A stretch of DNA of 64,000 bases from contig JADHWO010000004.1 of assembly GCA_016783445.1 (NCBI GenBank), positions 11,212-75,211 of the forward strand, in the 5' to 3' direction. Made by a program: the position numbers and the translations under genes. The notes under the pieces were generated by a model. That model had not been told where the DNA came from. It searched no databases and worked only from the letters and a program-made list of their open reading frames with translations. Shown in pieces: positions 7,098 through 33,846 of the stretch; the stretch's first letter is position 1, and each line of letters begins with the position of its first letter. This stretch comes from Candidatus Aminicenantes bacterium (GTDB lineage: Bacteria; Acidobacteriota; Aminicenantia; Aminicenantales; Aminicenantaceae).

Positions 7098-7134
7098 TCT
7101 CCTCTCCTTTTAAGCCTTATTTGCCAACCGCACC

Positions 7135-20824: not shown

Positions 20825-21580
20825 TCAGATAATACCTAGCTCGCTGAACTGAGGAAATCCTGAATGAGATATCCCCCAGCAGGCGAAAAGAATAAGACTT
20901 AATAAAAAGACACCCAGGAAAAATATAAGAAAGGGATACTTCCCTCTTTCTTTTTGTCTTCGAAAATAAAGAAAAAGAGCAAGGAGAAAGCCAGCTCCTG
21001 CGGCGGGAAAAGCAAAAACAACTGACTGGCCTTCTATTGCTTCCACTGTAAAAGTAAAACCAAATAAAACTGCCCCGACTGAAAGAAGAATAATGTTTTT
21101 CCAGGAGATAGACTTGATAAAAAACTGGGAAGCTATAATGACCAAGCCTACAGAAATTAGAAAAACTCCTCCGTGCCATATAAGATGGCTGATTGTCTCA
21201 TCAAAAAGATATGTGGCCCGGTATAATTCCGAATCTTTCATGTTCTGAACAAGCCTGGCAAGAGAATTCGAAGAGAGATGGATACCATGACCACTCACAT
21301 AACAAAGAAATCCAATAGCTAAAAAGATCCGCGCCGAAATCCTTAAATTATCAAGCGAGGGCAACTGCCCTTGGATGGAATATAGAGTTTTATTGGTACG
21401 TGAATAAAAAATGTAAGCTAAAGGAATAACGGCAAAGGGAGTTATAAAATCAAGTGTATCTCCCCCAGTTAAAGGCCATTTAAGATAGCTCGTAAGGAGA
21501 GCTGGCAGGATATGAAAAAAAGCGAAGGAAAAACAGAAGGCAAAAAACCAGAAATATAGCCTATTACTATCTTCTTTCAT
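20825..21580 (-). CDS. Hypothetical integral membrane protein
   Basis: 251 aa with about 7 hydrophobic segments; convergent with pepD. Confidence 0.45.
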   Translation of the reverse strand: MKEDSNRLYFWFFAFCFSFAFFHILPALLTSYLKWPLTGGDTLDFITPFAVIPLAYIFYSRTNKTLYSIQGQLPSLDNLRISARIFLAIGFLCYVSGHGIHLSSNSLARLVQNMKDSELYRATYLFDETISHLIWHGGVFLISVGLVIIASQFFIKSISWKNIILLSVGAVLFGFTFTVEAIEGQSVVFAFPAAGAGFLLALFLYFRRQKERGKYPFLIFFLGVFLLSLILFACWGISHSGFPQFSELGII

Positions 21581-21809
21581 TCAAATCTCCGTCAAAAGAC
21601 ATGATAGAAATTGAAATTAATTCCTAAACCCTCGTCAATAAGAGCAATGTCAAACCGAACAACAAAGTTTTGAAGATAATATCTCAATCCTCAGTCAATA
21701 TCAACAACAGCTTTATTGAGCCTTATTCCTGAGAAGGATGGCCAAACGTTTCCCCAGTCTAAAAAAATGTTGCCTCTTTTGTTTTTTTTCTAATGGAAGT
21801 TCTTGAGAA

Positions 21810-21849
21810 TATCAATTTAAAAAGTTGACTAACCCGAGTTAGTCAGCTT
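21810..21849 (-). terminator. Rho-independent terminator downstream of the beta-barrel gene
   Basis: Inverted repeat aagttgactaac-ccga-gttagtcagctt (11/12 bp stem) directly after the stop at 21851, followed on the minus strand by a T-rich tract. Confidence 0.6.
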
Positions 21850-21850
21850 T

Positions 21851-23305
21851 TTAAAAATGTAATCCAAAATTTATCCCAAATCCAAAACCGCCAAAACTTA
21901 CTCTTTTTTCAGGAAAATTTAGTATCATTGAACTATAAATCATATTAAATTGTTCATCATAGTCCCCAACATAATAACCGGTTAATTGAAAATCTTCGAT
22001 TTTTACAGGAATATATTTGTAATCGATATTCACTCCCACTGACCAATGCCTATTGAAAAAGTAATCATATTCTCCAAAAGCAATAAAAGTTAAGCCATTT
22101 TTTGAAAAATTGATATTATCGCCTTTCCCTCCTGAGAATCTCCATTCAGATGTTCTAAAATCTAGATTAAGATTACTTATTCCTATTCCAGCTCCTAGTT
22201 TAAAAGATGACTTCCTGAGAAAAGCATCTGGAATAGGCATCCACGCGCCTGTAATATAGTAAACACTTCCCGAATAATTTCCCAAGAGATAAAGGTCTGT
22301 GTAGTATTGTCTTCCTTCTTTATAGACTGTAACGTACTTATAACCATGAATTTCATGCTCTCCTAAAGGAAAATATCCAACACCCAAGGCAAATTTTTGG
22401 CTGATTGAATATTCAATTCTTATATTTTTAAAAAAAATAACAGGATCTTTTGCTACTTGCGGGAAATCTGTTGGTCCATATGAACCAAATGAAACAAAGA
22501 ATAGCATGAGCTCTCCACCTGGCTTTGTATCTCCAAAACCCCAATCTTTAAAATATCCTGAATAATTTTTAACTCCGTGAGAATTAAAATAACCAGGATT
22601 AAAAGTGAAATGAAAGCGGCTGAACTTACTAGATCTAGGTTTTTGATAATGTCTCTCATTAAATCTAATATGCTTTTTTTGAATTACATTTTTTTCAACA
22701 GGATTTCGAACTTTTTTCTTCATTAAAGAATTTGTCATTTTGTAACTATGAGGCAATTCTAGGGGAAACCGTGATTTAGAATTCAACTTTTTCAGAATGC
22801 TATCTACTTCTTCATTTGGCCTTCCTTCCAAAATTATCGACTCATCAATACCTTTGATAGCGCCCCAAATACCGCCAATTGGCGCTGATAAAATTGCCAA
22901 TCCTAATCCTCCTATCAAAGCCTTCTGACCGGCTGTCATACTGAACCAACCAGGCGGATCATCGCCGCTTAAAAGACCCAGCAATGCACCACTTCCTCCG
23001 CCAATCAATAATCCAGCTCCAAGACCTTTTAATAACTTTGATTTCTTCAAAATTCGGATACTTCTCAATTCATATATATCCGTTGTAATCCCAGATAAAG
23101 ATAAATCATCCATAAGAATAAGCTTGCTCCCTTTTACTGCTAGAAGTTCTGCCTTGATAATTTGGCCATCTAATGTCTGAATTAGAAGCTTAGCACCGTG
23201 TTTTTTTTCTTTAGCGTAAGAATCAGTCGCAAAAGTAATAACTGCAAAAAGTGTAATTAAAAATATTAGCTTCTTCCCCATTGATTTAAATTTTTTCTCT
23301 TTCAT
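21851..23305 (-). CDS. Outer-membrane beta-barrel protein with a glycine-zipper-rich periplasmic region (first transcription unit of the proposed regulon)
   Basis: Start placed at MKEKKFKS (GGGAGG 7 nt upstream); signal peptide ...TDSYA. Central GxxxG glycine-zipper tract; C-terminal half has alternating aromatic/hydrophobic beta-strand pattern ending ...GINFGLHF (terminal Phe typical of OMPs). The listed ORF start at 23368 overlaps the promoter motif and is unlikely. Confidence 0.6.
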   Translation of the reverse strand: MKEKKFKSMGKKLIFLITLFAVITFATDSYAKEKKHGAKLLIQTLDGQIIKAELLAVKGSKLILMDDLSLSGITTDIYELRSIRILKKSKLLKGLGAGLLIGGGSGALLGLLSGDDPPGWFSMTAGQKALIGGLGLAILSAPIGGIWGAIKGIDESIILEGRPNEEVDSILKKLNSKSRFPLELPHSYKMTNSLMKKKVRNPVEKNVIQKKHIRFNERHYQKPRSSKFSRFHFTFNPGYFNSHGVKNYSGYFKDWGFGDTKPGGELMLFFVSFGSYGPTDFPQVAKDPVIFFKNIRIEYSISQKFALGVGYFPLGEHEIHGYKYVTVYKEGRQYYTDLYLLGNYSGSVYYITGAWMPIPDAFLRKSSFKLGAGIGISNLNLDFRTSEWRFSGGKGDNINFSKNGLTFIAFGEYDYFFNRHWSVGVNIDYKYIPVKIEDFQLTGYYVGDYDEQFNMIYSSMILNFPEKRVSFGGFGFGINFGLHF

Positions 23306-23360
23306 CTCATTCCTCCCTAATCTTCTTTCTCTACATAATTTAGGCATATTGGGGAAAAGA

Positions 23361-23405
23361 GTTGTCAAAGAGATGTTAAAAGTTTGTTAAAAGTTTGTTA
23401 AAAAA
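23361..23405 (-). promoter_or_regulatory. Promoter-operator motif A: four direct half-sites (TTAACAAAC / TTAACAAAC / TTAACATCT / TTGACAACT) at 11-bp phasing; the last is a -35-like TTGACA
   Basis: Minus-strand reading TTTTTAACAAACTTTTAACAAACTTTTAACATCTCTTTGACAAC. Near-identical copies at 25776-25820 and 30358-30401, each just upstream of a minus-strand transcription unit. Confidence 0.6.
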
Positions 23406-23416
23406 GCAGAAATATC

Positions 23417-23458
23417 GAAAAAAAGGGGACTGTTCCTTAAAAAATAGGAACAATCCCC
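23417..23458 (-). terminator. Rho-independent terminator after the radical SAM gene
   Basis: ggggactgttcct-taaaaaat-aggaacaatcccc hairpin followed (minus strand) by TTTTTTTCG, between the stop at 23486 and promoter motif A. Confidence 0.6.
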
Positions 23459-23485
23459 AATATTTGCTGCTAGCAGAGGCTATTT

Positions 23486-24853
23486 TTACGAACCGGTAAT
23501 TGTATACACTTTTTTCTGAGCATGGTCTCTCTGGAAAATGGATAATCTAAAGAATACTGAGGAAATAATCAAAGAACGGAATATCCGTTTCAGTATATTC
23601 CCTTTAGTTGACATTGTGGAGATAAATCTCCACCACCTTTTAACAATACTTTTCCAGGAATAGAAGTATTTATTGATTCTGCGATAGGCTTTAAAAACAT
23701 CTTCCGAAGAAACTCGTTTTGGTGTAAAGACAAGATGGTCACCTTCATAATGTGAAAGGTCTTTATCAAAAATCCTCCCTTCTGACTCTACTTCTTTATG
23801 GAATGGTGTCCCGGGAATTGGGATGGAAATAGAGGTAAGTATTGAGCTCGGGTCAATATCATCAAGCCTCTCAGGCAGACTCTCGTAATAGGAAGGAGTA
23901 TCCTCATCAAGAGCCAGCATCAAACCTGTAAATGTCAAAATCCCACGCTTCTTAAGCTTCTCAAACAGCTCCTTGTATTCCTCCACTTTGTTCTGCCTCT
24001 TATGGACTGATGAAAGGCTTGGCTCATTTAATGACTCCAATCCAATAAAAGCCATTCCGCACCGCGCCTCGACTAACAGGTCTATATATTCATCATCATG
24101 AAGGCAGTCAAAGCTGAACTGGGCTCCTAATCCCCATAGTTTCAATTTGGCGATCTCTTTTAAAAGTTCTTTGGCATAACCCATATCTCCACCGAGATTA
24201 TTGTCAAGGAGCATTGCCATTTTGCGTTTATGGAATGGAAGTTTAGAGGTAGCGGTTAAATCACGGATCACATCCTCTATCGGCCTGCAGCGGTACGGAG
24301 TAGGTTTAACCGTAAGCTGACAGAAACTGCACTTGTATTTACATCCCCTCGTAGCCTCAGTCACAACAGGAACCGCAAAATCTGACTCAATCAGGTCATA
24401 TCGTGGAGGAGGTATATTGTCTAAAGATGGAGCAAGAGGTGCCTCATAAACCTTCTTCAATTTTCCATTTACCATATCCTCAACCACCTGGGCCCAAACA
24501 GGCTCTGCCTCCCCCACAACTACTGAATCCATGTGGGGAATAACCTCTTCAGGAAAAGTGGAAGGATATTTCCCACCTGCTACGACTGTTTTCCCAAGCT
24601 TTCTAAACTTATCCGCTACTTCAAAAGCATGGGGTGCACAGTAATCCATAAAGCTGAGCCCAATAAAATCTGCATCTGTGTTGTAATCGATAGGACGAAC
24701 CATCTCATGGAGAAGATCTACATCAACTATAGGTGGAGTCAAGCCAGCTACTAGAGCACCTGCGAGGGGTGGAGCTGGAGACCTGGCAAAATAAGTCTTT
24801 TCATCTCCCAGATTTTGGAAAAGTACAATAATTTGTAATTTTGGTTTATTCAT
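23486..24853 (-). CDS. B12-binding-domain radical SAM enzyme
   Basis: 455 aa; N-terminal cobalamin-binding-like Rossmann region then CKYKCSFCQ (CxxxCxxC); 8-nt overlap with the upstream SDR gene. Confidence 0.75.
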   Translation of the reverse strand: MNKPKLQIIVLFQNLGDEKTYFARSPAPPLAGALVAGLTPPIVDVDLLHEMVRPIDYNTDADFIGLSFMDYCAPHAFEVADKFRKLGKTVVAGGKYPSTFPEEVIPHMDSVVVGEAEPVWAQVVEDMVNGKLKKVYEAPLAPSLDNIPPPRYDLIESDFAVPVVTEATRGCKYKCSFCQLTVKPTPYRCRPIEDVIRDLTATSKLPFHKRKMAMLLDNNLGGDMGYAKELLKEIAKLKLWGLGAQFSFDCLHDDEYIDLLVEARCGMAFIGLESLNEPSLSSVHKRQNKVEEYKELFEKLKKRGILTFTGLMLALDEDTPSYYESLPERLDDIDPSSILTSISIPIPGTPFHKEVESEGRIFDKDLSHYEGDHLVFTPKRVSSEDVFKAYRRINKYFYSWKSIVKRWWRFISTMSTKGNILKRIFRSLIISSVFFRLSIFQRDHAQKKVYTITGS

Positions 24854-25667
24854 TAAATTCCTCCTTTTTATTTCGTAATTTATTCGCGATTCTTTTCATA
24901 ACCCTTATAACAAGCCAGGGCAGGAAACTTCGAGACAGTGCCAGCATCTTACCTCCAAGGGAAAGAATTAACTCCTGTTTTTCTTTTTTTATGGCTCTAA
25001 CAATAGTTTTTGCAACTCTCTGGGGAGAAACATAGGGGCCAGGAGGCCGGTGTGCCCCTCCCACATTCTTCTCTTTTTCGAAAAAGCCAGTCTGAGTATA
25101 GCCTGGATAAACGTTCATTATTGAGACACCGCTCCCTGCCAGCTCGGCACGCAAACTCTGGCCAAGGGCAACAAGCGCGGCTTTACTGGCACTATAAGCA
25201 CCCAGATAAGGAACGCCGTACATGGCTGCAACAGAGGAAATATTTACAATTAGCCCGCTACCATTTTTTTTCAGAAGAGGCAGGACTCTTAGAATACAAT
25301 GAACAGCCCCAAAAAAATTGACCTCCATTACTGAGCGGAAGTCCTCTAATGCCGTCATCTCACTATACCCATAAACTCCTGTGCCAGCATTGTTGATTAA
25401 GATGTCGATGCCCCCTAACTGGTCTTCACATCTTTTAATAAGCTGGTTGACCTTCTCCCTATTTGCTACATCACAGGCAACGGCAAGGGGAGCTTGAATC
25501 CCTGGGAAAGTATCTTCTAATTCATCAGCGACCTTCCTCAGAGAGCCAAAGCTACGGGATGTTATAGCTAGTTTTGCTCCTTTATTTGCAAATTCAAAGG
25601 CAAGCGCTTTGCCGATTCCAGAAGATGCTCCTGTTATAAGCACTCTCAAATCCCTGATTTCTGACAT
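24846..25667 (-). CDS. Short-chain dehydrogenase/reductase (SDR)
   Basis: 273 aa; TGASSGIG cofactor motif, NNAG, and YxxxK (YSASK) catalytic motif. Confidence 0.85.
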   Translation of the reverse strand: MSEIRDLRVLITGASSGIGKALAFEFANKGAKLAITSRSFGSLRKVADELEDTFPGIQAPLAVACDVANREKVNQLIKRCEDQLGGIDILINNAGTGVYGYSEMTALEDFRSVMEVNFFGAVHCILRVLPLLKKNGSGLIVNISSVAAMYGVPYLGAYSASKAALVALGQSLRAELAGSGVSIMNVYPGYTQTGFFEKEKNVGGAHRPPGPYVSPQRVAKTIVRAIKKEKQELILSLGGKMLALSRSFLPWLVIRVMKRIANKLRNKKEEFNE

Positions 25668-25775
25668 TTTTTATCCTAGTGACCGAAGTTTTGTAAAATG
25701 GAGACTGTCTCCATTTTTCGCAATTTTTTAATTTATTTATCCTCTTTCTATAATGTAACTCTCCCCTGAGATAAA

Positions 25776-25820
25776 GTTGTCAAAGAGATGTTAAGAGTTT
25801 GTTAAAAGTTTGTTAAAAAA
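25776..25820 (-). promoter_or_regulatory. Promoter-operator motif B (same 4 x 11-bp direct-repeat array ending in TTGACA)
   Basis: Minus strand TTTTTAACAAACTTTTAACAAACTCTTAACATCTCTTTGACAAC, about 110 nt upstream of the SDR start codon. Confidence 0.6.
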
Positions 25821-25842
25821 GGCAGGGAAATAAAAAAATGTA

Positions 25843-25889
25843 GGAAAAAGGGGGCAGGCTACTTTTTTTTAAAAAAGTAGCCTATCCCC
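25843..25889 (-). terminator. Rho-independent terminator closing the five-gene unit
   Basis: gggggcaggctac-(AT loop)-gtagcctatcccc hairpin with T-runs on both strands, immediately downstream of the stop of 25906..26334. Confidence 0.55.
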
Positions 25890-25905
25890 TTTTTTGCTTT
25901 TTTAG

Positions 25906-26334
25906 TTAATTAGTTCTATTTTTCCAGATTGCCAGAACAAGAAAAATACCTCCACCAAGACAGAGAAGGTTTATTAATATATTCAAAATACCTTCTCCAA
26001 CTCCTGTGAGATAGATTCCATGTTGGATATTAAACGAGATATCCAGAAGCCCAAGAAAGATAAGAGAAGCTCCCCCCATTAGGGAAAACAGACTGCCGTA
26101 AGACTTCTTTTTCAATAAGCCAATTCCACCGATAGTTAAAACTAAAGACAGATAGATATCAGGCACAGGAAAAGCTGATTCAAAAGCCAAATAGATCTCT
26201 TTCAATTGTGGGTCATTAAAACTTATTAAGTCCGTAGTAAAAAAAGCGATCCAGAAAAATACAATTCCAACTGCCAGTGCCAGCTCCAAAATGGCAGCAG
26301 TTTTAATCACTCCCGTCAATTTGACCTTTTTCAT
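25906..26334 (-). CDS. Small 4-TM membrane protein, last gene of the five-gene unit
   Basis: 142 aa, four hydrophobic helices; no recognisable family. Confidence 0.5.
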   Translation of the reverse strand: MKKVKLTGVIKTAAILELALAVGIVFFWIAFFTTDLISFNDPQLKEIYLAFESAFPVPDIYLSLVLTIGGIGLLKKKSYGSLFSLMGGASLIFLGLLDISFNIQHGIYLTGVGEGILNILINLLCLGGGIFLVLAIWKNRTN

Positions 26335-26376
26335 GTCAAATCCAATAATTGTTTAAAATATTATATAAAGTCTTTA

Positions 26377-27216
26377 TTATTCGCCTGTTTGCATTTTTTT
26401 CTTCTTTTCACGTCTTTTTCTTATCGTACTGCTTCCAATCTTCTCCAGGAGCGGCAAAAGCAAGAAGTAAAACTTGGGAAAAGCCATTCCAATCCGGCAG
26501 AAAACTCCCATTCCGGACGGAACCAGTATTTCCGCCTTATTCTTACGCACTGCTTTGATTATTCCTTTAGCAACCTTTTCAGGTTTTAAGGGTTCCCCTA
26601 TAAAGGAAAGCACAGCCTCGTCATATAAAAGTTCATAATCAAGCTGTGGAGTATCTACAGAATCAGGACAAACTACAGCTATTCCCACGGGAGATTTACG
26701 CAATTCAGCATATAGCGAAAAAGAATAGCCTCGAATGGCGAATTTAGTAGCGCTATAGATAGCTTCACCCGGCATCGGAACAATACCTCCCAATGAGGCA
26801 ACATTGACAATTTTACCAGAATTCTGCTCTTTCATAAGAGGCAAAACTGCCCGGCATCCATTAATAGTTCCTAAAAAGTTTACTGAAACCTGATGATGGA
26901 CTTTCTCTAAGGCAATTTTTTCAGTTGCTCCTGGGTGAATAACGCCTGCATTGTTAACAAGAATATCAATTTTGCCGTACTTTTGCCTGACATTCTCTAT
27001 AAGCGACTGCCAGGATTCAGGGTTTGTGACATCATGTTCAATAACCATGGTCTCTGTTCCCAGATCCTTCAAGGCCACACTTAATTCTTCTAATTCTTTC
27101 TTTCGAATATCTGTCAGGACTAAAACAGCACCTTGTTTGGCAAAAATATGTGCTGTAGCTGAGCCTATACCACCAGCTGCACCGGTAATGATTGTTACTT
27201 TTTCCTTAAGCATCAA
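26377..27216 (-). CDS. Short-chain dehydrogenase/reductase (SDR)
   Basis: 279 aa; TGAAGGIG, NNAG and YSATK motifs. Confidence 0.85.
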   Translation of the reverse strand: MMLKEKVTIITGAAGGIGSATAHIFAKQGAVLVLTDIRKKELEELSVALKDLGTETMVIEHDVTNPESWQSLIENVRQKYGKIDILVNNAGVIHPGATEKIALEKVHHQVSVNFLGTINGCRAVLPLMKEQNSGKIVNVASLGGIVPMPGEAIYSATKFAIRGYSFSLYAELRKSPVGIAVVCPDSVDTPQLDYELLYDEAVLSFIGEPLKPEKVAKGIIKAVRKNKAEILVPSGMGVFCRIGMAFPKFYFLLLPLLEKIGSSTIRKRREKKKKMQTGE

Positions 27217-27252
27217 ATTTCTCCTGGTAATGTTTAAAATGTTTAGATTACA

Positions 27253-28299
27253 CTACCAAATTCCAGCTTCTAGTGCAATGTGAAGTAATTCTGTTATATA
27301 GCCTTGAGGATCAGAACCAGCCGTCTCAGACAAGTTTCTAATCAATGTAGTATTAAGAGGGATTAGCTGTTCTTGAGTCTTGATGCTTACTCCTTCTCCG
27401 CTGGCCACCTCACCAATTAAGATAGGCATCCAACCGTTTAGGGCGGCCCTTTGAAGAAATTTTTTTTCATTCTGAGGGCTTATGGTAAAACAAAGCTCAA
27501 ATTCTCCATGAACCGCTGCCAGAGCCAACCACGGCGGAAGATTTTGAGCTCTGCACACCTGTTGTACAACCGGATGCAAGATACGCTCCCAATCATTATT
27601 AAGAATGAATTTGTTATGATTCAGCCGCATAAGTGTATCTAAAGTATGTAAAAGACCATCACTTGTATCCATGCAACAACTGGCAAATTCCCTGACTATT
27701 ATTCCCTCTGCGATTCTTGCGGCTGGTTTGTAGAAAAACTCCAGCATTTTATAATCCTGCCCGGACAGCCGCAAAAAAGCAAAAATGCTTCCCAGGCCTC
27801 CTGGACCGGAAAGGTATAACTTATCCTTTGGTTTTGCTCCTATTCTGGTAATGGCTGATTTTTTTGGAACAAGTCCAACAGCACACCCGGAAAGAAATAA
27901 TTCTTTTCCCTGGTTAGTATCTCCACCAAGAACAAATGTATTCAGCCGCTTGCAGGCATCAGAAATTCCCTCTGTCAGTCTCGCCATAAATGCCTCATCC
28001 TGAGTTGAGGGGAAGCTAATTGACACGAGCAGTCCCAGGGGTTCAGCTCCAACCGCAGCCAGATCTGAAAAATTAACCATAGCCAGCATCCAGCCAATAA
28101 GATATGGATCATCATATAAGCCAGTGGATACCTCTTCCACCAAAGCATCCGTTGTTATTGCTAGATATTTTTCACTTTCCTTTCCAAAATCTATCAACTC
28201 TGCATCTGCTTCGTGAATCTCATTTTTTTTATGTGGAGCTTTGAGATAATTTTTAGTTATCTTCTCGATTTTTAAGTTTTCTAAAATATCTTTTTTCAT
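27253..28299 (-). CDS. ThiL-like PurM-superfamily ATP-dependent enzyme (AIR-synthase-related kinase)
   Basis: 348 aa; segment DDPYLIGWMLAMVNFSDLAAVGAEPLGLLVSISFP matches the ThiL/PurM N-domain signature (AVNLSDLAAMGA...). The genomic context is not thiamine biosynthesis. Confidence 0.65.
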   Translation of the reverse strand: MKKDILENLKIEKITKNYLKAPHKKNEIHEADAELIDFGKESEKYLAITTDALVEEVSTGLYDDPYLIGWMLAMVNFSDLAAVGAEPLGLLVSISFPSTQDEAFMARLTEGISDACKRLNTFVLGGDTNQGKELFLSGCAVGLVPKKSAITRIGAKPKDKLYLSGPGGLGSIFAFLRLSGQDYKMLEFFYKPAARIAEGIIVREFASCCMDTSDGLLHTLDTLMRLNHNKFILNNDWERILHPVVQQVCRAQNLPPWLALAAVHGEFELCFTISPQNEKKFLQRAALNGWMPILIGEVASGEGVSIKTQEQLIPLNTTLIRNLSETAGSDPQGYITELLHIALEAGIW

Positions 28300-29225
28300 T
28301 GGCTTACTTTTAAGATTCCCTGCAGTAATTTGATCTTAATGTCACGAGCAAGGCATACTTCTCCATCAAGCTCCAGCGGTGTAAGAGAAACCGGGTAAAT
28401 ATCAATTCTATCCGTCTTCCAGCTCCTCGTTTTTGGCAGTCCTGAAAATTTAGATCGTGCAAGAGAGAAAATCGTCCTTAATCTGGCCAGGACTCCCATC
28501 TTCTCACAAAGAGCAACACCAAAAAAATCGCTTTGAGGAGAAATATTAAAATCGTAACAGAGATTCCCGCTGATATGAGGATTAATAACAACGCTCAAAC
28601 TGGAAACATCCGTTGAATAGCGTTTATTCCCAATTTTGATCTCTGTTGGAATATTCTTAGCTGAGAATAATGTCTTTAATGCAGAATACCAGATGGTTCC
28701 CTCAACCCACTTGGATTTCATCAATTTTATGATTTTCTCTTTTGAATTGAACAGAAAATTGGCTTGAGCTATAACTCCAATACTGCAATTTATGATGAAA
28801 TACCTTCTCTGCCATTTTCCATTTTCATCCTCAAAATCAACCTGCCCAACATTATGCTGAACAGCATTTTTATAATCCAATTTTAACGGCACTTTACCAT
28901 TATTGTTATTATTTTCAGAGGAAGACTTGTGAAAATCATTGCTCGAACCCAAACCAATAGCTCCCATAATTACTTTCCTGCGTTCCACCTTTCTCATATT
29001 CATTATTTGATTGAGTAAAAAATTAATCGTCCCATCCCCTCCAGCCGACACTAATAATCTTTCTCCTCTGCCATACTCCTGACGCAGGCTCTTGTGGAAT
29101 TCTTCTAAATCAGAAATGAGGATATAATTATTTTTGATATACTTTTTTTCCAGCTCAGGTCTGTACTTTTCCCATTTTTGAAACCCTTTGCCATTATTGG
29201 AATATTTGTTTAATAAAATAAGCAT
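28296..29225 (-). CDS. DAGK_cat-domain lipid kinase (YegS/BmrU/sphingosine-kinase-like)
   Basis: 309 aa; LLVSAGGDGTINF matches the diacylglycerol-kinase catalytic-domain GGDGT motif; overlaps the neighbouring genes. Confidence 0.7.
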   Translation of the reverse strand: MLILLNKYSNNGKGFQKWEKYRPELEKKYIKNNYILISDLEEFHKSLRQEYGRGERLLVSAGGDGTINFLLNQIMNMRKVERRKVIMGAIGLGSSNDFHKSSSENNNNNGKVPLKLDYKNAVQHNVGQVDFEDENGKWQRRYFIINCSIGVIAQANFLFNSKEKIIKLMKSKWVEGTIWYSALKTLFSAKNIPTEIKIGNKRYSTDVSSLSVVINPHISGNLCYDFNISPQSDFFGVALCEKMGVLARLRTIFSLARSKFSGLPKTRSWKTDRIDIYPVSLTPLELDGEVCLARDIKIKLLQGILKVSQ

Positions 29226-29229
29226 TGTC

Positions 29230-30285
29230 TCACACCTGCCTTTTTTCTGGTCTAAGTTTTAAAGTCAGTTCAAAGAATAAATAAAAGGCCACAATAAAAA
29301 CCAGCCAATTTATCTTCAGAGTTACAGTTATCGCTGCACAGTAAAGAATAAAAGAACGAACCACATTAGCTATCGCACCGTGAGCTTTGTTTTCATCCCT
29401 GGTTTGATGGATCTTGATCTGGGCATAAAGGTTTACAGCTACTGCTATAAAAAATATGGAAATTCCAAGTATGTTTTGCTCTCTGAACAAAATCAGTACC
29501 CAGCCGGTAAGCACAGCGGCTAAGAGAGCAATAACATCGCTGTATACAGCAGCTGCCTTCCAGCCAAAAACTACAGGAAAAGTCTTATAACCGGTCTTTC
29601 TATCAGCTGAAATATCTTTGAAATAACCCATCACAACAAAATTAGCATAACCGAAAAAAATCGCTAACACTGCTAAAAGGAAGGCCAAAGAATGTAAGTC
29701 TCCCAGCCGAATGATTTCCTTGACTGAATAATCTCTATCTACAAATCTCCCCATAACTGGCAGCAAAGCAACTATCCATGAATTCCAGAATGGCCCACCC
29801 CACCAGGTTCTTTTTAACGGAGTGTAAGTGAGCAAACCTATAACTGCAATAACACCAAAGACTAAAATTACAGGATTTAAATAAACCATGATTAAAATCG
29901 CCAGTGTTAATCCAGCAAGGCTGACACTTAAAACCTGCCAGCGGGAAATTATACCTTTTATCAAGGGACGATATGGGGAGGAGAGAGCATCTGTATCCAT
30001 TTGAAAACAATCTGTAAGAGCCTGTCCTAATCCGTAGGATAAGAACAGAGGGATAAAAGCAAGTGCAATTCTTACATCTCCCAGCTCTTTTATAAAAACA
30101 AGCCCTACCAATCCAGCACTTCCAGAGACAAAAAAAAGATATGGTCTCATTGTTGACCAAAAAGCCTTCCAAAAAGTTAAACTTAAGATATCCGCATACC
30201 GATAATTGGGCATGAAACATCCCCTCAGGAGATTTAATAAAATGAGCCCGGTACTTATTTTTATATTTTTACTTACTGCTAACAT
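29230..30285 (-). CDS. UbiA-family aromatic/polyprenyl prenyltransferase (integral membrane)
   Basis: About 8-9 TM helices. Asp-rich motifs TDCFQMDTD (NDxxDxxxD-like) and YFKDISADRKTG (DxxxD) fit the UbiA superfamily. True start may be the internal MPNYRY (30213). Confidence 0.7.
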   Translation of the reverse strand: MLAVSKNIKISTGLILLNLLRGCFMPNYRYADILSLTFWKAFWSTMRPYLFFVSGSAGLVGLVFIKELGDVRIALAFIPLFLSYGLGQALTDCFQMDTDALSSPYRPLIKGIISRWQVLSVSLAGLTLAILIMVYLNPVILVFGVIAVIGLLTYTPLKRTWWGGPFWNSWIVALLPVMGRFVDRDYSVKEIIRLGDLHSLAFLLAVLAIFFGYANFVVMGYFKDISADRKTGYKTFPVVFGWKAAAVYSDVIALLAAVLTGWVLILFREQNILGISIFFIAVAVNLYAQIKIHQTRDENKAHGAIANVVRSFILYCAAITVTLKINWLVFIVAFYLFFELTLKLRPEKRQV

Positions 30286-30357
30286 TATGCCTCCTGGAGT
30301 TTATTAATCTTCAATTTCTCCATTTCTATAAATAATCTAACTTCCCCTGGATCTAAA

Positions 30358-30401
30358 GTTGTCAAAAAGATGTTAAGAGTTTGTTAAAAGTTTGTTAAAA
30401 A
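30358..30401 (-). promoter_or_regulatory. Promoter-operator motif C (same direct-repeat array), upstream of the UbiA-led unit and directly downstream of the response-regulator gene
   Basis: Minus strand TTTTTAACAAACTTTTAACAAACTCTTAACATCTTTTTGACAAC. Confidence 0.6.
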
Positions 30402-30584
30402 TGGAAAATTTGTAGGAAAATTAGAGAAAGACAGATATAGCCTTTAATTCTTTTATTGATACAATTAATGAAGAAAATGAGTACATACCCAAATTTGCAG
30501 AGATAGGTCACAATATTTTATTGGGTCTGCCCCCATTTTAATTAACAGGAATAAAACAGGAAGGCTGGAAAAGTGTAAGATTTG

Positions 30585-31268
30585 TTATTTTTGAAATTTA
30601 TAACCGGACCAGGGTATAGTGATAAGATGTGAAGGTTTGGCTGGATTTCCCTCTATTTTTTGCCTTAAATGGTGGATAAAAGTATCAATCGTCCTTGTTG
30701 TGGGGAATTTATCGTAACCCCAGACTTCATTAAGAATTGTCTCCCGGCTTACAACTTCTCCCTCATGGGAAACGAGGAGCTTAAGAAGGCCATACTCTTT
30801 GGCTGTAAGGTAAATGTCTTTTTTTCCTTTTGAGGCGATTTGTTTTTTAAAATTAATGTAAACATTCCCAAAAGAATACTCCTCAACTTCTGGCGCTTCA
30901 GGTTTAGAGCGGCGGAGCACAGCTCTAATCCTGGCAAGAAGTTCTTTTGTCCCAAAAGGTTTTGTGATGTAATCATCCGCTCCAAACTCAAGCCCTAAAA
31001 CTTTATCAATTTCTTCTTTCTTCTCCCCTGTCAGCATGATAATAGGCGTTTTAATTTTTTTTGTCCGCAACCTCTTACAAACTTCCAGTCCATTTAAAGA
31101 AGGGAGTAAAAAATCGAGTATTATCAAATCAACTGTTTCCTGGCTTGCCAGCTGAAATCCCTTCTCTCCATCAGCAGCCGTGATAACTTTAAAACCTTCT
31201 ATTTCCATATAAACTTTTAATGTTTCAAGTAAAACTTTATCATCGTCGATAATTAATATTTTTTTCAT
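30585..31268 (-). CDS. OmpR/PhoB-family response regulator (receiver plus winged-helix DNA-binding domain)
   Basis: 227 aa; receiver with DD...D...K pattern (IIDDD, ILDFLLP, T...K); C-terminal wHTH (LTAKEYGLLKLL..., TIDTFIHHLRQKIE). Confidence 0.9.
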   Translation of the reverse strand: MKKILIIDDDKVLLETLKVYMEIEGFKVITAADGEKGFQLASQETVDLIILDFLLPSLNGLEVCKRLRTKKIKTPIIMLTGEKKEEIDKVLGLEFGADDYITKPFGTKELLARIRAVLRRSKPEAPEVEEYSFGNVYINFKKQIASKGKKDIYLTAKEYGLLKLLVSHEGEVVSRETILNEVWGYDKFPTTRTIDTFIHHLRQKIEGNPAKPSHLITIPWSGYKFQK

Positions 31269-33643
31269 GGCTTTGGAAAAATCAGAATAAAAGTGCTGCC
31301 TTTATTGGCTTGACTTTCAACTTTGACCTCCCCCTTATGAGCTTCCATAATGTGTTTGACAATTTTTAATCCCAGGCCTACTCCTTTTGGATTGTGTTGG
31401 CTCGCCTCAGCATGCCGGTAAAACTCCTCGAATATCCTCTTTATATCTCTGGAAGGAATGCCAATCCCCTTATCTTTAACATGAATCTCCGCCAGTTTTT
31501 CTCTCTCGATAAGCTGGATCACGATTTCTCTCTTATCTGACGAATATTTAATAGCATTATCAATAAGATTAGTCAAAGCCTGCTTAACAGCATCCTGGTC
31601 TATCTCTAAAAAAATAGGACCCTCCGCTAAATCAACAGTGAAAACAAATCCATCTGATTCTAACTTTTGTAAAAACAGTTGTGCTACTTCTATAATGATA
31701 GACTGTATTTTAACTTTTTGAAAATTATAAGTTTTTACTTGTTGTTCAATTTTTCCAAAATCAAGGATATTGTGCAGGAATCGGGAAAGTCGGCTGCTTT
31801 CGCTGGCCACAAGGTTTATGAGCTCATCCTGCTTTGTTTTCTCCTTTATCTTCCCTCCCTGAAGAATTTCCGCCAGACCTTGGATGGAACTCATGGGAGT
31901 TCGAAGCTCGTGGGATACAGATGAAATAAACTCAGTTTTAAGGCGGTTAAGCTCATTCAATTTTTCTCTTTCCACTCTTTCATAAATCACTTCTTCCTGA
32001 AGCCTGATCCTTTCAAGGTTTAAAGCCAGTTCCCTGGCCATGGTAAGTAAAAGCTCTATGTCATCCCGGCTGAATTTCTCCCCTGATTTTTTCTTTCCCA
32101 GAGACAATAATCCAGCAAGGTCAGATGACTTAAAAGACAGAGGAAAAATTAACTCAATTTTTTTCTCTTCAAGTTCTTCCTCCAGTGAAAAATCCATATG
32201 TTCTTCCGTACGAACAGCCCTTTTCCTGGCAATTATATTATCTGAATCCATACAAAGAGAAACCAAAAAGTTGAGGTTTTTTTCGCCATTTTTTCCAATT
32301 AAAAGCTTAGGCTTTCCGGACCTCACAGAAAATATGTAGACTCCGATATGTTCTAGAGGCAAGGTGTTTTTCATCTTTTGTAAGAAAAATTCTACAAGCT
32401 GGCCGCGGTTTACCATCTCATAAGCTCTCTCACTGAAACTGAGGATGCTTTTTTTATAGTCAAAACTCATCCGGAAAAATGCCTTATCAACTATCTCTTG
32501 GATTTTCTTCCTCGCAGGATGAAAAACTACTGCAGCCGCAAGAGCCCCAATAACAGATACAGCTGTTTTATTGACAGAAAAGAAATTTGAAAAGATATTT
32601 TGAAAAAGAGCAACGGAAAAGAGATAAATACTGACAGTGAACACAGTTAGTAAAAAATAGACCAAGCTTCGGTTGATGACCAGTTCGACTTCCATCAGTT
32701 TAAACTTCACAATGGAAAAAGCGAACGCAAGAGGTATAAAAATAAAAAACAACAGGGAAAATTCCTCTGTCATCAGAGGTTTATTTCTTATTACCTGGGG
32801 TAATTCATATAAAAGAATAAACGGTCCCAAACCGACAAAAAGACCGTAAAAGATCCATTTTATCTGGGCTCGTTCTTCCTCCATGGCAACTTTTCGATAG
32901 CTGAAAATAAGGAAAAAAACTGCTAAAAGGACAAAGAAAATTAGGTAACAACGAAGAGCATAAAGAACGATTTGGTAGTACTTGTTTATTTCGATCGAAG
33001 ATTTTAAGCTTGACAAGAGAAATAACACCTCAAGAACCCCAGCAAAAATTAGAGCCGGACAGTAAATAAAAAACCTGCTTATCTTGAGTTTTTTCTTTGA
33101 GAAAAAAAGAGAAAAACGAAGTAGAAGAGCAGGTGCCAGAGGATAGAGAATATAGAACAAGATCCCCGGAGCATAAGAGAGCCAGTCTTTCCGCAAACAG
33201 AAAAATCCGCTGTTTATGATAAGGGAAGAAAAGAGTGCCAAAGAAGCCCAATAATAGATGCGAGCCCTTGAATCTTCGGCACGCAGGAAAAAAACTAAAA
33301 TTGCTACGGCAAGGCAGAAGAGAGCTATAAGGAAATAAATTAAGGGATAAGCAGCCTGGGGCCCAGAGTAATATGGAATGATTTGACCCTCTCTTTTTTT
33401 TATTGTGTCATTAACTTTGATATGGAAGGTTACCTGTTCTCCGATTGTTTTCCGGCTAAGCATAAATTCACGGTCTAATTTCCCTTCGGTTTTTACGCCG
33501 TCTATTTGCTCAACAAAACCATAGTCTACTCCCGTAGGAAGAGGAAGGCCGGGGCGCTGACGGAGCAAAAAGAATCCGTAAATACTTATAAGAAAAATGA
33601 CAAAGCCCACAAACAAATAAAAGAAAAACAGGGCTTTTTTCAT
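31265..33643 (-). CDS. Multi-TM sensor histidine kinase (short periplasmic loop, about 7 TM helices, cytoplasmic linker/GAF-like region, HisKA plus HATPase_c)
   Basis: 792 aa; H-box SHELRTPMSSI, N-box NLIDNAIKYS, G-boxes DKGIGIP and GVGLGL; 4-nt overlap with the response-regulator gene. Confidence 0.9.
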   Translation of the reverse strand: MKKALFFFYLFVGFVIFLISIYGFFLLRQRPGLPLPTGVDYGFVEQIDGVKTEGKLDREFMLSRKTIGEQVTFHIKVNDTIKKREGQIIPYYSGPQAAYPLIYFLIALFCLAVAILVFFLRAEDSRARIYYWASLALFSSLIINSGFFCLRKDWLSYAPGILFYILYPLAPALLLRFSLFFSKKKLKISRFFIYCPALIFAGVLEVLFLLSSLKSSIEINKYYQIVLYALRCYLIFFVLLAVFFLIFSYRKVAMEEERAQIKWIFYGLFVGLGPFILLYELPQVIRNKPLMTEEFSLLFFIFIPLAFAFSIVKFKLMEVELVINRSLVYFLLTVFTVSIYLFSVALFQNIFSNFFSVNKTAVSVIGALAAAVVFHPARKKIQEIVDKAFFRMSFDYKKSILSFSERAYEMVNRGQLVEFFLQKMKNTLPLEHIGVYIFSVRSGKPKLLIGKNGEKNLNFLVSLCMDSDNIIARKRAVRTEEHMDFSLEEELEEKKIELIFPLSFKSSDLAGLLSLGKKKSGEKFSRDDIELLLTMARELALNLERIRLQEEVIYERVEREKLNELNRLKTEFISSVSHELRTPMSSIQGLAEILQGGKIKEKTKQDELINLVASESSRLSRFLHNILDFGKIEQQVKTYNFQKVKIQSIIIEVAQLFLQKLESDGFVFTVDLAEGPIFLEIDQDAVKQALTNLIDNAIKYSSDKREIVIQLIEREKLAEIHVKDKGIGIPSRDIKRIFEEFYRHAEASQHNPKGVGLGLKIVKHIMEAHKGEVKVESQANKGSTFILIFPKP

Positions 33644-33846
33644 GCTTTGATATTCCCTTCCTGCTGGGCAAAATATAACACCTTGCTATGTTTATTGTCA
33701 AACAGAGGTCGTTGAGTAATAAATTGGAGCAGTAAAAAAATCTATTCAGGATAAAAAATCACATTTTTTACGGAAAATAAATGTGATTTTATTTTTATTT
33801 TGGGAGGATTTAAAGTAAAAATCTCAGAGTAAATTCTGGTTTGTAT

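Follow-up and report, generated by a model that had tools for sequence, protein, structure and literature searches.

A candidate two-component regulon of envelope lipid and outer-membrane genes headed by a four-half-site repeat element in uncultured Aminicenantes bacteria

Background

Among described regulatory sites, those closest to the promoters reported here include the Pho boxes bound by PhoB in E. coli and PhoP in B. subtilis, which are class-II activation sites. The core PhoP site of B. subtilis consists of four TT(A/T/C)ACA repeats with an 11-bp periodicity in place of the -35 hexamer. Other OmpR-family systems, PhoPQ and PmrAB, control dispersed envelope-lipid-modification operons and outer-membrane proteins via direct-repeat boxes. 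In the case of ArcA, also of the OmpR/PhoB family, two to five direct repeats are recognized at an 11-bp centre-to-centre distance (PMC3798270). Comparators for the genes are the bacterial sphingolipid loci (Caulobacter spt-acp-cerR-bcerS with cpgABC, including the ceramide kinase CpgB, and Bacteroidota Spt with dihydrosphingosine kinase), the products of which are envelope lipids. The bacterial ceramide and dihydrosphingosine kinases are DAGK_cat-type kinases (bioRxiv 10.1101/2023.05.01.538943).

We analyzed a 64 kb stretch of Candidatus Aminicenantes DNA (the window), in which a repeat element heads three gene units next to a two-component system. The explanation we favor, with a probability of about 0.7, is that this adjacent system controls a regulon of envelope lipid and outer-membrane genes through the element's four half-sites.

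Results and discussion

The repeat element and its gene units

Three copies of TTAACAAACTTTTAACAAACTYTTAACATCTYTTTGACAAC are found on the minus strand (23361-23401, 25776-25816 and 30358-30398) with no mismatches among them. The number of copies expected by chance was 0 (100 shuffles) and there is no fourth copy in the window. The whole element is 41-45 nt long, near-identical in all three copies, and contains four TTAACA/TTGACA hexamers at 11-bp spacing. When 11-bp phased hexamer pairs were counted, 10 matches were observed against 0.54 expected, nine of them within the three elements (A-C). An earlier sequence-only reading of this DNA had described one ~45-bp four-half-site element shared by three transcription units, and this is confirmed.

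Element A (30358..30401, minus strand) has TTAACA half-sites at 30398-30393, 30387-30382 and 30376-30371 and a TTGACA half-site at 30365-30360, and the -10-like hexamer TAGATT (30334..30339, minus strand) lies 20 nt past half-site 4. It is kept at the orthologous position in relatives. The half-sites of element B (25776..25820, minus strand) run from 25816-25811 to 25783-25778 with a -10-like TACATT at 25757-25752 (minus strand), and those of element C (23361..23405, minus strand), which lies within a strain-variable cassette, run from 23401-23396 to 23368-23363 with TAAATT at 23342-23337 (minus strand). Each element heads a gene unit, element A being located 3' of the regulator gene and elements B and C directly 3' of a terminator hairpin. 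As had been proposed, every unit is closed by a terminator-like hairpin on the minus strand: 25855..25884 for unit 1 (13 pairs), 23425..23458 for unit 2 (13 pairs, 7 GC, T-run) and a weaker one at 21826..21845, 3' of the outer-membrane protein gene (8 pairs, weaker T-tail).

All genes of the three units lie on the minus strand. Unit 1 starts with a UbiA-superfamily transferase (351 aa; 29230..30285; Pfam) in which both Asp-rich motifs are invariant in the homologue alignment (D92, D97, D99, D224 and D228) and whose relationship to chlorophyll synthase and DGGGP synthase is only a distant one (E about 1e-6). It is followed by a DAGK_cat / YegS-type lipid kinase with a GGDG motif (309 aa; 28296..29225; Pfam and NCBIfam), an AIRS/PurM-superfamily ATP enzyme (348 aa; 27253..28299) closest to thiamine-monophosphate kinase (ThiL; NCBIfam 171.6 bits, under the cut-off of 184.15; E 4e-31 to solved ThiL structures), the short-chain dehydrogenase SDR1 (279 aa; 26377..27216; Pfam) and a small polytopic membrane protein (142 aa; 25906..26334) with about 4 TM helices in a hydropathy scan. 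The last of these showed no Pfam match and only a weak precomputed DUF8058 match. Unit 2 contains a second short-chain dehydrogenase, SDR2 (273 aa; 24846..25667; Pfam), located directly 5' of the radical SAM gene wherever it was detected, and the B12-binding radical SAM enzyme itself (455 aa; 23486..24853; Pfam), which shares 56-89% identity with its homologues in almost every related locus, whatever the phylum. The gene annotations first made from the sequence alone are correct.

The third unit encodes an outer-membrane protein (484 aa; 21851..23305). Its start is the ATG at 23305; the TTG at 23368 sits inside the promoter and was rejected. In the AlphaFold model (pLDDT 78.6) a signal peptide, a small beta domain, a Gly-rich helical (Gly-zipper) hairpin and a C-terminal beta-barrel were observed. 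No Pfam match was obtained for the protein; in Foldseek, OmpA, OmpW, Ail and OprG were recovered as structural matches to the barrel (probability 1.0; target-normalised TM-score about 0.5-0.6). Promoter, gene and terminator form a cassette of ~1.7 kb that is missing in otherwise near-identical strains. The expected beta-barrel with a glycine zipper is supported by the model; the dedicated exporter that had been suggested is not a fixed one, as the cassette varies between strains. Next to the cassette, also on the minus strand, are a remnant of an Omp85-like gene (its last 60 codons; 21595..21774) and p251, a polytopic membrane protein without a family match (20825..21580). Relatives have this Omp85-like gene intact, with the radical SAM gene on one side and the p251 homologue on the other. 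Wherever the Omp85-like gene belongs to the radical SAM unit p251 comes after it, and in a complete genome a p251-type gene comes after the Omp85 gene that trails the regulator.

The two-component system

The sensor histidine kinase (792 aa; 31265..33643, minus strand; Pfam HisKA/HATPase) consists, in the AlphaFold model (pLDDT 75), of TM1, a small PDZ-like extracytoplasmic beta domain, about 8 TM helices, a GAF-like domain, HisKA and HATPase. The PrsK model TIGR02916 was aligned over positions 5-679 of 679 (117.5 bits; cut-off 300). The family defined by the sensor region has 247 members and, among the best 120 of 247, every protein with a named source is from Aminicenantes. The gene for the OmpR/PhoB-family response regulator (227 aa; 30585..31268, minus strand; Pfam Response_reg and Trans_reg_C) begins before the kinase gene ends, with an overlap of 4 nt. 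Its orthologues share 69-83% identity in Aminicenantes, and the regulator or the kinase-regulator pair stands immediately 5' of the element in many Aminicenantes contigs. In Ignavibacteria/Bacteroidota the regulator orthologues adjoining the cluster share 49-56% identity and have the wHTH signature PTTRTVD.Y in common, and an orthologous kinase gene also flanks the cluster. The pairing of an OmpR/PhoB-type regulator and a multi-TM kinase with the element, first noted in this window, recurs across phyla. The recognition-helix differences between the two lineages run parallel to a shift of the half-site from TTAACA to TGACA. The locus of L013-type genomes also encodes another receiver protein, in which REC is fused to a Ser/Thr kinase and TPR.

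Promoter geometry

TAnATT is the sole conserved -10-like hexamer and is found 20 nt downstream of the array in 106 of the 134 distinct instances. The fourth half-site had been taken for a consensus -35 TTGACA; at this distance it is not a canonical one. The kinase-regulator operon has a near-consensus sigma-70-type promoter of its own (33672..33701, minus strand; TTGACA-18-TATATT with TG, 11/12 matches), from which the cognate kinase would be made. This promoter lacks the repeat element, and the phased-hexamer scan upstream of the kinase gene was empty. With TAnATT placed at -12 to -7 of a sigma-70-type promoter, the array would cover about -72 to -33, a class-II, Pho-box-like arrangement. Because the -10-like hexamer is kept without a properly spaced -35, the promoter is probably activator-dependent and would need the bound regulator for transcription; it is from this geometry that we infer activation rather than repression. 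The regulatory mechanism would be of a classical type.

Conservation of the element

The orthologous promoters of about 20 related Aminicenantes genomes have the element as well, and it is still at matching sites in relatives whose UbiA is just 46-77% identical. These sites are 5' of the first gene (UbiA, DAGK or SPT-like, whichever leads) and 5' of SDR2. The hexamers, a trailing ACT and the TAnATT 20 nt downstream are conserved and the spacers vary. When a relaxed three-half-site pattern was applied to 80 genome loci (2.38 Mb), 41 matches were obtained against about 0.07 expected (arithmetic from the pattern degeneracy, assuming equal base frequencies), and 41/41 are 5' of cluster genes in the same orientation. 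A metagenome scan gave at least 119 contigs with 122 further sites among the matches listed. A co-oriented ORF starts 28-249 nt away at 104/104 of the listed sites with at least 400 nt downstream, and one of the 122 is inside a long open frame; random positions satisfy both (a co-oriented ORF, outside a long frame) in 12%. The element is thus oriented and close to genes, as a promoter element would be, and is not a scattered repeat.

CP070750.1, a complete genome, has two element-marked loci 740 kb apart. At one the element starts 70 nt 3' of the regulator gene, ahead of Omp85-p248, and at the other it precedes the UbiA cluster. The cluster promoters of Ignavibacteria/Bacteroidota contain a diverged form of the element with unchanged geometry, in which two to three (T/G)TGAC(A/G) repeats are spaced by 11 bp and TAnnnT follows after 20 nt. 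In WOR-3, Eisenbacteria, Cloacimonadota and others there is no adjacent two-component system and single TTGAC-17-TAnnnT promoters drive the cluster.

These comparisons make it well supported that the element is part of a larger, previously undescribed regulon in uncultured Aminicenantes bacteria. The three units initially proposed are far too few, as the element heads many further genes in relatives and metagenomes. In the window the regulon would comprise UbiA-lipid kinase-ThiL-like-SDR-4TM, SDR-B12 radical SAM and the strain-specific OmpA/OmpW-like outer-membrane protein. In relatives it would also include the SPT-like enzyme, Omp85-like proteins with p251, an HpnA-like epimerase/reductase, a carbamoyltransferase, a 5'-nucleotidase, an EEP phosphoesterase, many small outer-membrane barrels and, judged from a sequence pattern only, S1/P1-nuclease- or phospholipase-C-like phosphoesterases.

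The lipid gene cluster

Across more than 10 phyla, UbiA-DAGK-AIRS synteny was observed in 67-75 of the 80 loci. An SPT-like alpha-oxoamine synthase, whose best NCBIfam match is serine palmitoyltransferase (474 bits; cut-off 640), adjoins the cluster in 46 of the 80, and genes for an acyl ligase, SDR2 and the radical SAM enzyme also recur. None of the SPT-like, ThiL-like and KDSR-like matches reaches its curated cut-off. Neither an SPT-like gene nor an acyl ligase was found in the window, so the sphingoid link depends on the other genomes. The conserved core (SPT-like enzyme, UbiA, lipid kinase, ThiL-like kinase, acyl ligase, SDR and B12 radical SAM enzyme) suggests a modified sphingoid-type lipid. 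The label of a prenyl-lipid pathway, given from the window's genes, is too narrow, as most other phyla add the SPT-like enzyme and an acyl-AMP ligase. That the gene combination is not a described pathway is supported, as none was found; judged by its genes, the cluster is a widespread, sphingolipid-like and previously uncharacterised one.

Every chemical step of the pathway is predicted. The acyl-AMP ligase, SPT-like enzyme and SDR would produce a long-chain amino-alcohol (sphingoid-type) base, and the DAGK_cat kinase and ThiL-like kinase would phosphorylate a lipid alcohol stepwise; in thiamine metabolism ThiL itself turns a phosphate into a diphosphate. For UbiA, the coupling of a lipid diphosphate to an acceptor is predicted. 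A non-allylic lipid diphosphate would be an unusual donor for UbiA, which counts against this coupling. The B12 radical SAM enzyme may modify an unactivated carbon.

For the control of these genes, the 45-nt element would offer four tandem half-sites to the phosphorylated adjacent regulator, presumably as two head-to-tail dimers with one half-site per helical turn. The kinase would sense its signal via the small extracytoplasmic beta domain, the ~8-TM block and the GAF-like domain, an architecture that suggests a membrane or envelope cue.

Alternative explanations

The alternative we take most seriously, although it is unlikely, is a Pho-type phosphate-starvation regulon with a PhoR/PhoP-like pair and Pho boxes, in which a low-phosphorus sphingoid/amino lipid replaces phospholipids while phosphate is scavenged. 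It would refine the main explanation and not exclude it. The element resembles the B. subtilis PhoP core site, the kinase core has PnpS and PhoR as its best NCBIfam matches, and the regulator's top matches include PhoB; all matches to Pho families, however, are well under the cut-offs. In relatives the element leads a 5'-nucleotidase and an EEP phosphoesterase (Pfam) and an S1/P1-nuclease- or phospholipase-C-like protein, recognized from an N-terminal WG..TH pattern only (no Pfam or NCBIfam match). On the other hand, the kinase lacks a PAS domain and the PhoR architecture, no pst/phoU genes are in the window or beside the two-component system at the loci examined, and no PstS, PhoU or alkaline phosphatase lookalike was found among the first ORFs of the 122 listed metagenome sites (cluster representatives judged by sequence, 10 scanned against Pfam, architectures matched to the query set only). 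Less probable than this is that the adjacent regulator binds the array and represses, its occupancy of about -72 to -33 occluding RNA polymerase. The array does overlap the -35 region, and ArcA multi-repeat sites serve mostly for repression (PMC3798270). However, a properly spaced -35 is missing from the element promoters but present in the kinase promoter and in those that drive the cluster in other phyla, which is a signature of activator dependence, and the fixed register between array and TAnATT is typical for class-II activation.

We give still less credence to another factor, an OmpR-family paralogue or an unrelated protein, as the one that binds the element, with the adjacency of the two-component system coincidental or only partly related. 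No kinase or regulator was found within 10 kb of the element-bearing cluster in several genomes (L020, L021 and L056), and L013-type genomes have the additional receiver. Half-sites are similar between OmpR-family paralogues, and since the one here is of this generic kind its sequence alone cannot assign the element to the adjacent regulator over a paralogue. Nevertheless, regulator/kinase adjacency and repeat element coincide in two distant lineages and are jointly absent elsewhere, the recognition helix varies with the half-site, and in CP070750.1 the element directly trails the regulator gene. It is very improbable that the enzymes belong to a known pathway, that is archaeal-type ether lipids (DGGGP synthase), ubiquinone/menaquinone prenylation or thiamine. 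JGI auto-annotations do name homologues DGGGP synthase or 4-hydroxybenzoate polyprenyltransferase, the AIRS protein is nearest to ThiL, and DGGGP synthase homologues are reported in FCB-group bacteria (PMC7852524). Yet UbiA is far under all NCBIfam cut-offs, no GGGP synthase, quinone or thiamine genes were seen among the annotated loci, in all these phyla the ThiL-like gene keeps its place within the cluster, and its constant partners are the SPT-like enzyme, lipid kinase and B12 radical SAM enzyme. Finally, a generic intergenic repeat or mobile element without a regulatory role is effectively refuted. The window's copies are nearly identical and one moves with an insertion/deletion cassette, but orientation and distance to genes are strict, orthologous positions are held among diverged genomes, conservation is limited to the hexamers and the -10-like hexamer, and the element has neither terminal repeats nor a transposase.

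Comparison with known systems

The kinase resembles PrsK of the XrtA/PEP-CTERM system PrsK/PrsR in its polytopic N-terminus, GAF-like domain and kinase core. It differs in its score, well below the PrsK cut-off, in the exosortase context, none of which was seen, and in its OmpR-type partner; PrsR is NtrC-type. With the Pho boxes the element shares tandem direct repeats of one-helical-turn periodicity that fill the -35 region, a -10 that is kept and a usable -35 that is missing, and, like PhoB and PhoP, the regulator has a co-transcribed histidine kinase as its partner. The system differs from Pho in its polytopic kinase (~9 TM helices plus GAF-like), the missing pst/phoU linkage, the sub-threshold family matches and a regulon of lipid and outer-membrane genes. 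The ArcA repeat is TGTTAA-like, and the half-site here is its reverse complement, although the string TGTTA was not found in the ArcA paper. ArcA sites are alike in their multiple 11-bp direct repeats bound by OmpR/PhoB-family dimers, a binding that is predicted here, and differ in that their position and orientation vary and they mostly repress, whereas position, orientation and -10 register are fixed in the element (PMC3798270). The regulon logic would be like that of PhoPQ/PmrAB, although nothing in the sensor, the box sequence, the target enzymes or the phyla is related. Compared with the known sphingolipid loci, no bCerS-type acyltransferase was identified in the cluster, the family matches are all under the cut-offs, and the cluster has a constant set of UbiA, ThiL-like kinase and B12 radical SAM enzyme that none of the described sphingolipid pathways we found includes. 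The two nevertheless have in common a clustered SPT-type alpha-oxoamine synthase, acyl-activating ligase, NAD(P) reductase and DAGK_cat-type kinase.

Promoter element in the window

Three zero-mismatch copies of the pattern TTAACAAACTTTTAACAAACTYTTAACATCTYTTTGACAAC were found on the minus strand of the 64 kb window (23361-23401, 25776-25816 and 30358-30398), with no further copy in the window and 0 expected from 100 shuffles. This exact triplicate confirms that the three elements described in the sequence-only reading are real. Their four TTAACA/TTGACA hexamers stand at exactly 11 bp in all three window copies and in 134 distinct instances. Hexamer pairs with 11-bp phasing were observed 10 times in the window against 0.54 expected, and nine of the ten lie inside the three elements. 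The direct repeats thus have the ~10-11 bp periodicity that characterizes OmpR/PhoB-type sites, and multi-repeat sites at 11-bp spacing are documented for this family (PMC3798270).

What comes before every element is either the end of the regulator gene or a terminator that closes the preceding unit. The terminator scan gave terminator-like hairpins on the minus strand at 25884-25855 and 23458-23425 and a weaker one at 21845-21826. A small hairpin in the SDR2 leader (~25717-25690) was rejected, as it has no T-run, is not kept in relatives and is absent from the terminator scan. Neither Rfam, at its gathering thresholds, nor a tRNA scan gave any match in the window.

When the promoters were aligned, the four hexamers, a trailing ACT, a G-rich run and a TAnATT hexamer were conserved and the rest was variable. 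TAnnnT starts 20 nt past the fourth hexamer in 106 of the 134 distinct instances, and 19 or 21 nt past it in 26 more. The TTGACA of half-site 4 had been taken as a consensus -35. Because the sole conserved -10-like hexamer lies mostly 20 nt downstream, this TTGACA is not a -35 at canonical spacing and the assignment was abandoned; at a 17-nt spacer, the -35 position of the element promoters is ACAACT. The predicted geometry is of the activator-dependent type, in which the proximal putative regulator site replaces the -35. Within the 20-nt spacer, the G-rich run GGGGA/G is kept in the window (30341-30350 and 25761-25770) and in relatives, and the OMP promoter has CCCC in its place.

The element in relatives and the size of the predicted regulon

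The exact UbiA protein was found on 18 public contigs, from which the six with the most flanking DNA were taken. UbiA homologues with 60-77 % identity occur in Aminicenantes, WOR-3, Cloacimonadota and other candidate phyla. In ~20 Aminicenantes genome loci the element occupies the same two places, always on the coding strand. One lies ahead of unit 1, whose leading gene is UbiA, DAGK (in loci with swapped order) or the serine-palmitoyltransferase (SPT)-like synthase (where present), and the other is upstream of SDR2. A relaxed three-half-site pattern gave 41 matches in 2.38 Mb of genome loci, all before cluster genes, against a chance expectation of ~0.07 by our own arithmetic with equal base frequencies.

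A metagenome scan with a degenerate 25-base pattern gave at least 122 sites on at least 119 contigs. Among the matches listed, a co-oriented ORF begins 28-249 nt downstream (median ~60 nt) at all 104 sites with enough sequence, and one of the 122 listed sites lies inside a long open frame. Random positions show both features, a co-oriented ORF downstream and a place outside a long frame, in 12 % of cases. The position and orientation of the listed sites relative to genes led to the rejection of a generic repeat or MITE, and the motif search bears out the proposal that this is a promoter element and not a scattered repeat.

The putative regulon had been described as three units, which proved too few, as many more gene families lie downstream of the element among the metagenome matches listed. 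Besides the families of the window (UbiA, DAGK, SDR2-radical SAM and OMP-like proteins), the element leads an SPT-like alpha-oxoamine synthase heading a UbiA-DAGK-AIRS operon, an HpnA-like epimerase/reductase (element-led in relatives), a carbamoyltransferase, a small secreted protein followed by a 5'-nucleotidase, an EEP-Omp85 fusion, another radical SAM enzyme, a 310-aa protein and many small barrel proteins. A further element-led protein is putatively S1/P1-nuclease- or phospholipase-C-like by its N-terminal WG..TH pattern alone, with no Pfam or NCBIfam match. The 310-aa protein has no Pfam or NCBIfam family and a 169-aa protein has no Pfam family.

The adjacent two-component system

The sensor kinase gene (31265-33643, minus strand; HisKA/HATPase by Pfam) overlaps the start of the regulator gene by 4 nt. 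The regulator has a PF00072 receiver (E 8e-30) and a PF00486 Trans_reg_C winged helix (E 4e-25), so that the features of the OmpR/PhoB family, a receiver plus winged-helix regulator and a cognate HisKA/HATPase kinase with overlapping genes, are present. The pair is kept in relatives, and in many Aminicenantes contigs the regulator, or the whole pair, lies directly 5' of the element. The family of the kinase sensor region comprises 247 proteins; among the best 120 of the 247, all those with a named source are from Aminicenantes. In the complete genome CP070750.1, the chromosomal surroundings of the pair match those in the window; next come the element, an Omp85 gene and a p251 homologue. The UbiA cluster, which has an element of its own, is found 740 kb from this locus. 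The predicted regulon is dispersed within this one genome.

In Ignavibacteria/Bacteroidota, the same cluster is flanked by a regulator with 49-56 % identity and a kinase of unchanged architecture, both encoded on the opposite strand. In the promoters of these bacteria, two or three (T/G)TGAC(A/G) repeats spaced 11 bp apart are followed, after 20 nt, by TAnnnT; such repeats also occur before a 5'-nucleotidase and in a promoter that diverges toward the putative S1/P1-like gene. The regulators adjoining the cluster have a common wHTH signature; those of Aminicenantes and Ignavibacteria/Bacteroidota differ at four recognition-helix positions, paralleling the shift in the half-site. In WOR-3, Stahlbacteria, Eisenbacteria and Cloacimonadota, no kinase or regulator was seen in the fetched flanks (up to 10 kb on each side), and the cluster promoters have a single TTGAC-17-TAnnnT. 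On the basis of co-occurrence, the adjacent regulator is the putative controller of the element-bearing promoters.

The kinase gene itself is preceded by a near-consensus sigma-70-type promoter (33672-33701, minus strand; TTGACA-18-TATATT with TG). No repeat element is present in this region, and therefore there is no sign of autoregulation through the element. Further upstream, p197 (33847-34440, minus strand; 197 aa) belongs to no Pfam or NCBIfam family; its N-terminus is hydrophobic and signal-peptide-like, and two more hydrophobic segments follow. Its gene is kept immediately 5' of the kinase gene in close relatives and, with 34 % identity, in the Aminicenantes locus L013, and p197 may act as an accessory part of the sensor.

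Some Aminicenantes encode a protein of 900 aa between the sensor kinase and the OmpR-type regulator (L013, 6378-9080). Its translation, judged by eye, has a receiver, a Ser/Thr protein kinase and TPR repeats, which suggests a branched signalling pathway. Three Eisenbacteria loci (L028, L032 and L038) have another conserved box 5' of the SPT-like gene, ACTATGCTG(A/C)AACGGATA(A/T)GGCTTGACG, which suggests another regulator over the same cluster there.

The outer-membrane protein and strain variation

The OMP gene starts at ATG 23305 behind a GGGAGG ribosome-binding site; TTG 23368 lies inside the promoter. A model built from 41 homologues (pLDDT 78.6) predicts a C-terminal barrel in addition to a signal peptide, a small beta domain and a Gly-rich helical hairpin. 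This barrel (pLDDT 84-96 in 10-residue block means) resembles OmpA, OmpW, Ail and OprG with a Foldseek probability of 1.0, and the C-terminus is ...GLHF. This predicted model agrees with the earlier identification of an outer-membrane beta-barrel; the signal peptide, antiparallel barrel fold and C-terminal aromatic residue are those of OmpA/OmpW/OmpX-like small barrels. Neither the OMP nor p251, a polytopic membrane protein (20825-21580), has a Pfam or NCBIfam family.

The whole OMP transcription unit, from element C through the gene to the terminator, forms an insertion/deletion cassette of ~1.7 kb (~23414-21717). The window, L002 and L005 carry this cassette; L001, L003 and L004, which are loci with the identical UbiA protein, lack it and have ~70 nt in its stead (compared with L001 17110-17374). 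The OMP had been proposed as a dedicated exporter, which is contradicted by these absences; it is an accessory member of the regulon and not a fixed exporter. Between the OMP gene and p251, the 3' end (60 codons) of an Omp85-like gene remains (21595-21774, minus strand), 42 % identical to the C-terminus of an EEP-Omp85 protein. In relatives, an intact Omp85-like gene lies between the radical SAM gene and p251, giving the unit 2 order SDR2-radical SAM-Omp85-like-p251. The outer-membrane barrel beside p251 is read as a conserved slot with a changing occupant, because the OMP cassette is strain-variable and the Omp85-like gene, intact in relatives, is a remnant here.

The gap between SDR1 and the 4-TM gene is ~310 nt longer in L001 (14001-14228), L003 (8782-9009) and L004 (8724-8951) and contains an ORF of 75 aa in the opposite orientation. 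The strains with this additional DNA are those without the OMP cassette.

Enzyme genes of the cluster

Pfam and NCBIfam upheld the gene calls made from the sequence alone (kinase, OmpR/PhoB-type regulator, UbiA, DAGK_cat, ThiL-like AIRS, SDRs and radical SAM). Unit 1 ends with an SDR and a small protein with ~4 TM helices, and in unit 2 the SDR2 gene overlaps the B12-binding radical SAM gene. UbiA-DAGK-AIRS synteny is kept in 67-75 of 80 genome loci from more than 10 phyla. The conserved set was found in Aminicenantes, WOR-3, Cloacimonadota, Eisenbacteria, Zixibacteria, Ignavibacteria, Bacteroidota, Gemmatimonadota, Calditrichia and others. In WOR-3, Stahlbacteria, Eisenbacteria and others, the operon consists of the SPT-like synthase, UbiA, DAGK, AIRS, a long-chain acyl ligase, SDR2 and radical SAM. 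That of Ignavibacteria/Bacteroidota has UbiA, DAGK, AIRS, synthase and radical SAM, and the metagenome contig L209 (UbiA 67 % identical) has synthase, radical SAM, UbiA, DAGK, AIRS and ligase.

The synthase adjoins UbiA in 46 of the 80 loci; neither it nor the acyl ligase is encoded in the window. Its best NCBIfam match is serine palmitoyltransferase (474 and 440 bits, below the cut-off of 640). The SDRs score 134-151 bits against the KDSR model (cut-off 400), and none of the genes was recognised as bCerS-like. The ceramide and dihydrosphingosine kinases known from bacteria are of the DAGK_cat type (bioRxiv 10.1101/2023.05.01.538943).

Three further observations were made on gene content. In L052 (8878-13000), the synthase-UbiA-DAGK-AIRS set lies in a MAG labelled as a Thermoplasmatota archaeon, through either horizontal transfer or misbinning. 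In the complete WOR-3 genome CP070834.1 (L208), the lipid kinase is cut to 173 aa (11016-11535), its surroundings lack the ThiL-like, SDR and radical SAM genes, and the cluster appears decayed. Adjacent SAM synthetase and SAH hydrolase genes in the window (5841-8301, minus strand), ~15 kb from the radical SAM unit and without the element, are probably housekeeping genes.

Alternative readings of the regulon and its enzymes

The regulon could be a response to phosphate starvation (Pho), which we hold as a minority reading. It is kept alive by the phosphoesterases, as the element leads a 5'-nucleotidase and an EEP enzyme (both by Pfam) and a putative S1/P1-like enzyme by sequence pattern only. 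However, the kinase has ~9 TM helices and a GAF-like domain, and not the two TM helices and PAS of the PhoR type. No pst or phoU genes are present in the window or annotated loci, and no PstS-, PhoU- or PhoA-like proteins were recognised among the first ORFs of the listed matches, most of which were judged by eye. The regulon is not a demonstrable Pho system because the kinase architecture is wrong, pst/phoU linkage is absent in the window and annotated loci and the Pho family scores are below cut-offs.

In the case of the enzymes, an archaeal-type ether lipid made by GGGPS and DGGGPS was considered. UbiA retains both Asp-rich motifs; DGGGP synthase and chlorophyll synthase are only remotely similar, with an E-value of only 4e-6 against the solved DGGGP synthase and 56-63 bits against NCBIfam models with cut-offs of 296-353. 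This reading was rejected since these scores are too low and no PcrB/GGGPS gene, the GGGP synthase partner, was seen in the annotated loci. ThiL converts a monophosphate to a diphosphate, and the AIRS protein is closest to ThiL (171.6 bits; TIGR01379 cut-off 184.15). Its gene is fixed between the lipid kinase and an SDR or acyl ligase in 67 of 80 loci, and the score above cut-off together with thiamine context that defines ThiL was not found. Scores and genomic context also speak against thiamine and quinone readings, which were rejected, and the enzymes probably belong to no already characterised pathway.

Proposed product

A sphingoid-type lipid is therefore what we infer as the cluster product from the synthase, DAGK_cat, AIRS/ThiL and UbiA matches. 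A lipid alcohol on it would be phosphorylated twice and would then serve in, or be altered by, a transfer of the UbiA type; one more modification would come from the radical SAM enzyme. In its full form, to which we give a probability of roughly one in three, our reading is that the gene set (SPT-like, UbiA, DAGK_cat, ThiL-like, acyl-AMP ligase, SDR and B12 radical SAM) makes an undescribed class of envelope lipid, a (di)phosphorylated sphingoid-type base with C-methylation and with either alkylation or prenylation. Uncultured sediment bacteria would widely share this class. Aminicenantes and Ignavibacteria/Bacteroidota would make it on demand, with outer-membrane proteins alongside, under the control of a dedicated sensor kinase embedded in the membrane.

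We know of no cultured model for the Aminicenantes phylum, and the analysis gives it a concrete and testable regulon, in which a cis-element and a candidate sensor and regulator are joined to target gene families numbering more than 15. The enzyme set, kept in at least 10 mostly uncultured phyla, is tied together by two independent lines, an operon in some and a common promoter element in others. If a new envelope lipid is indeed made, it could account for orphan lipids of anoxic sediments and reveal how these bacteria remodel their outer membrane.

Comparison with known systems

Full-text searches turned up no paper on such a gene combination or element. The regulatory design corresponds to the textbook OmpR/PhoB-type arrangement, and its mechanism is conventional. 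The enzyme set is closest to bacterial sphingolipid loci, from which it differs in that UbiA, the ThiL-like kinase and the B12 radical SAM enzyme are constant partners in it.
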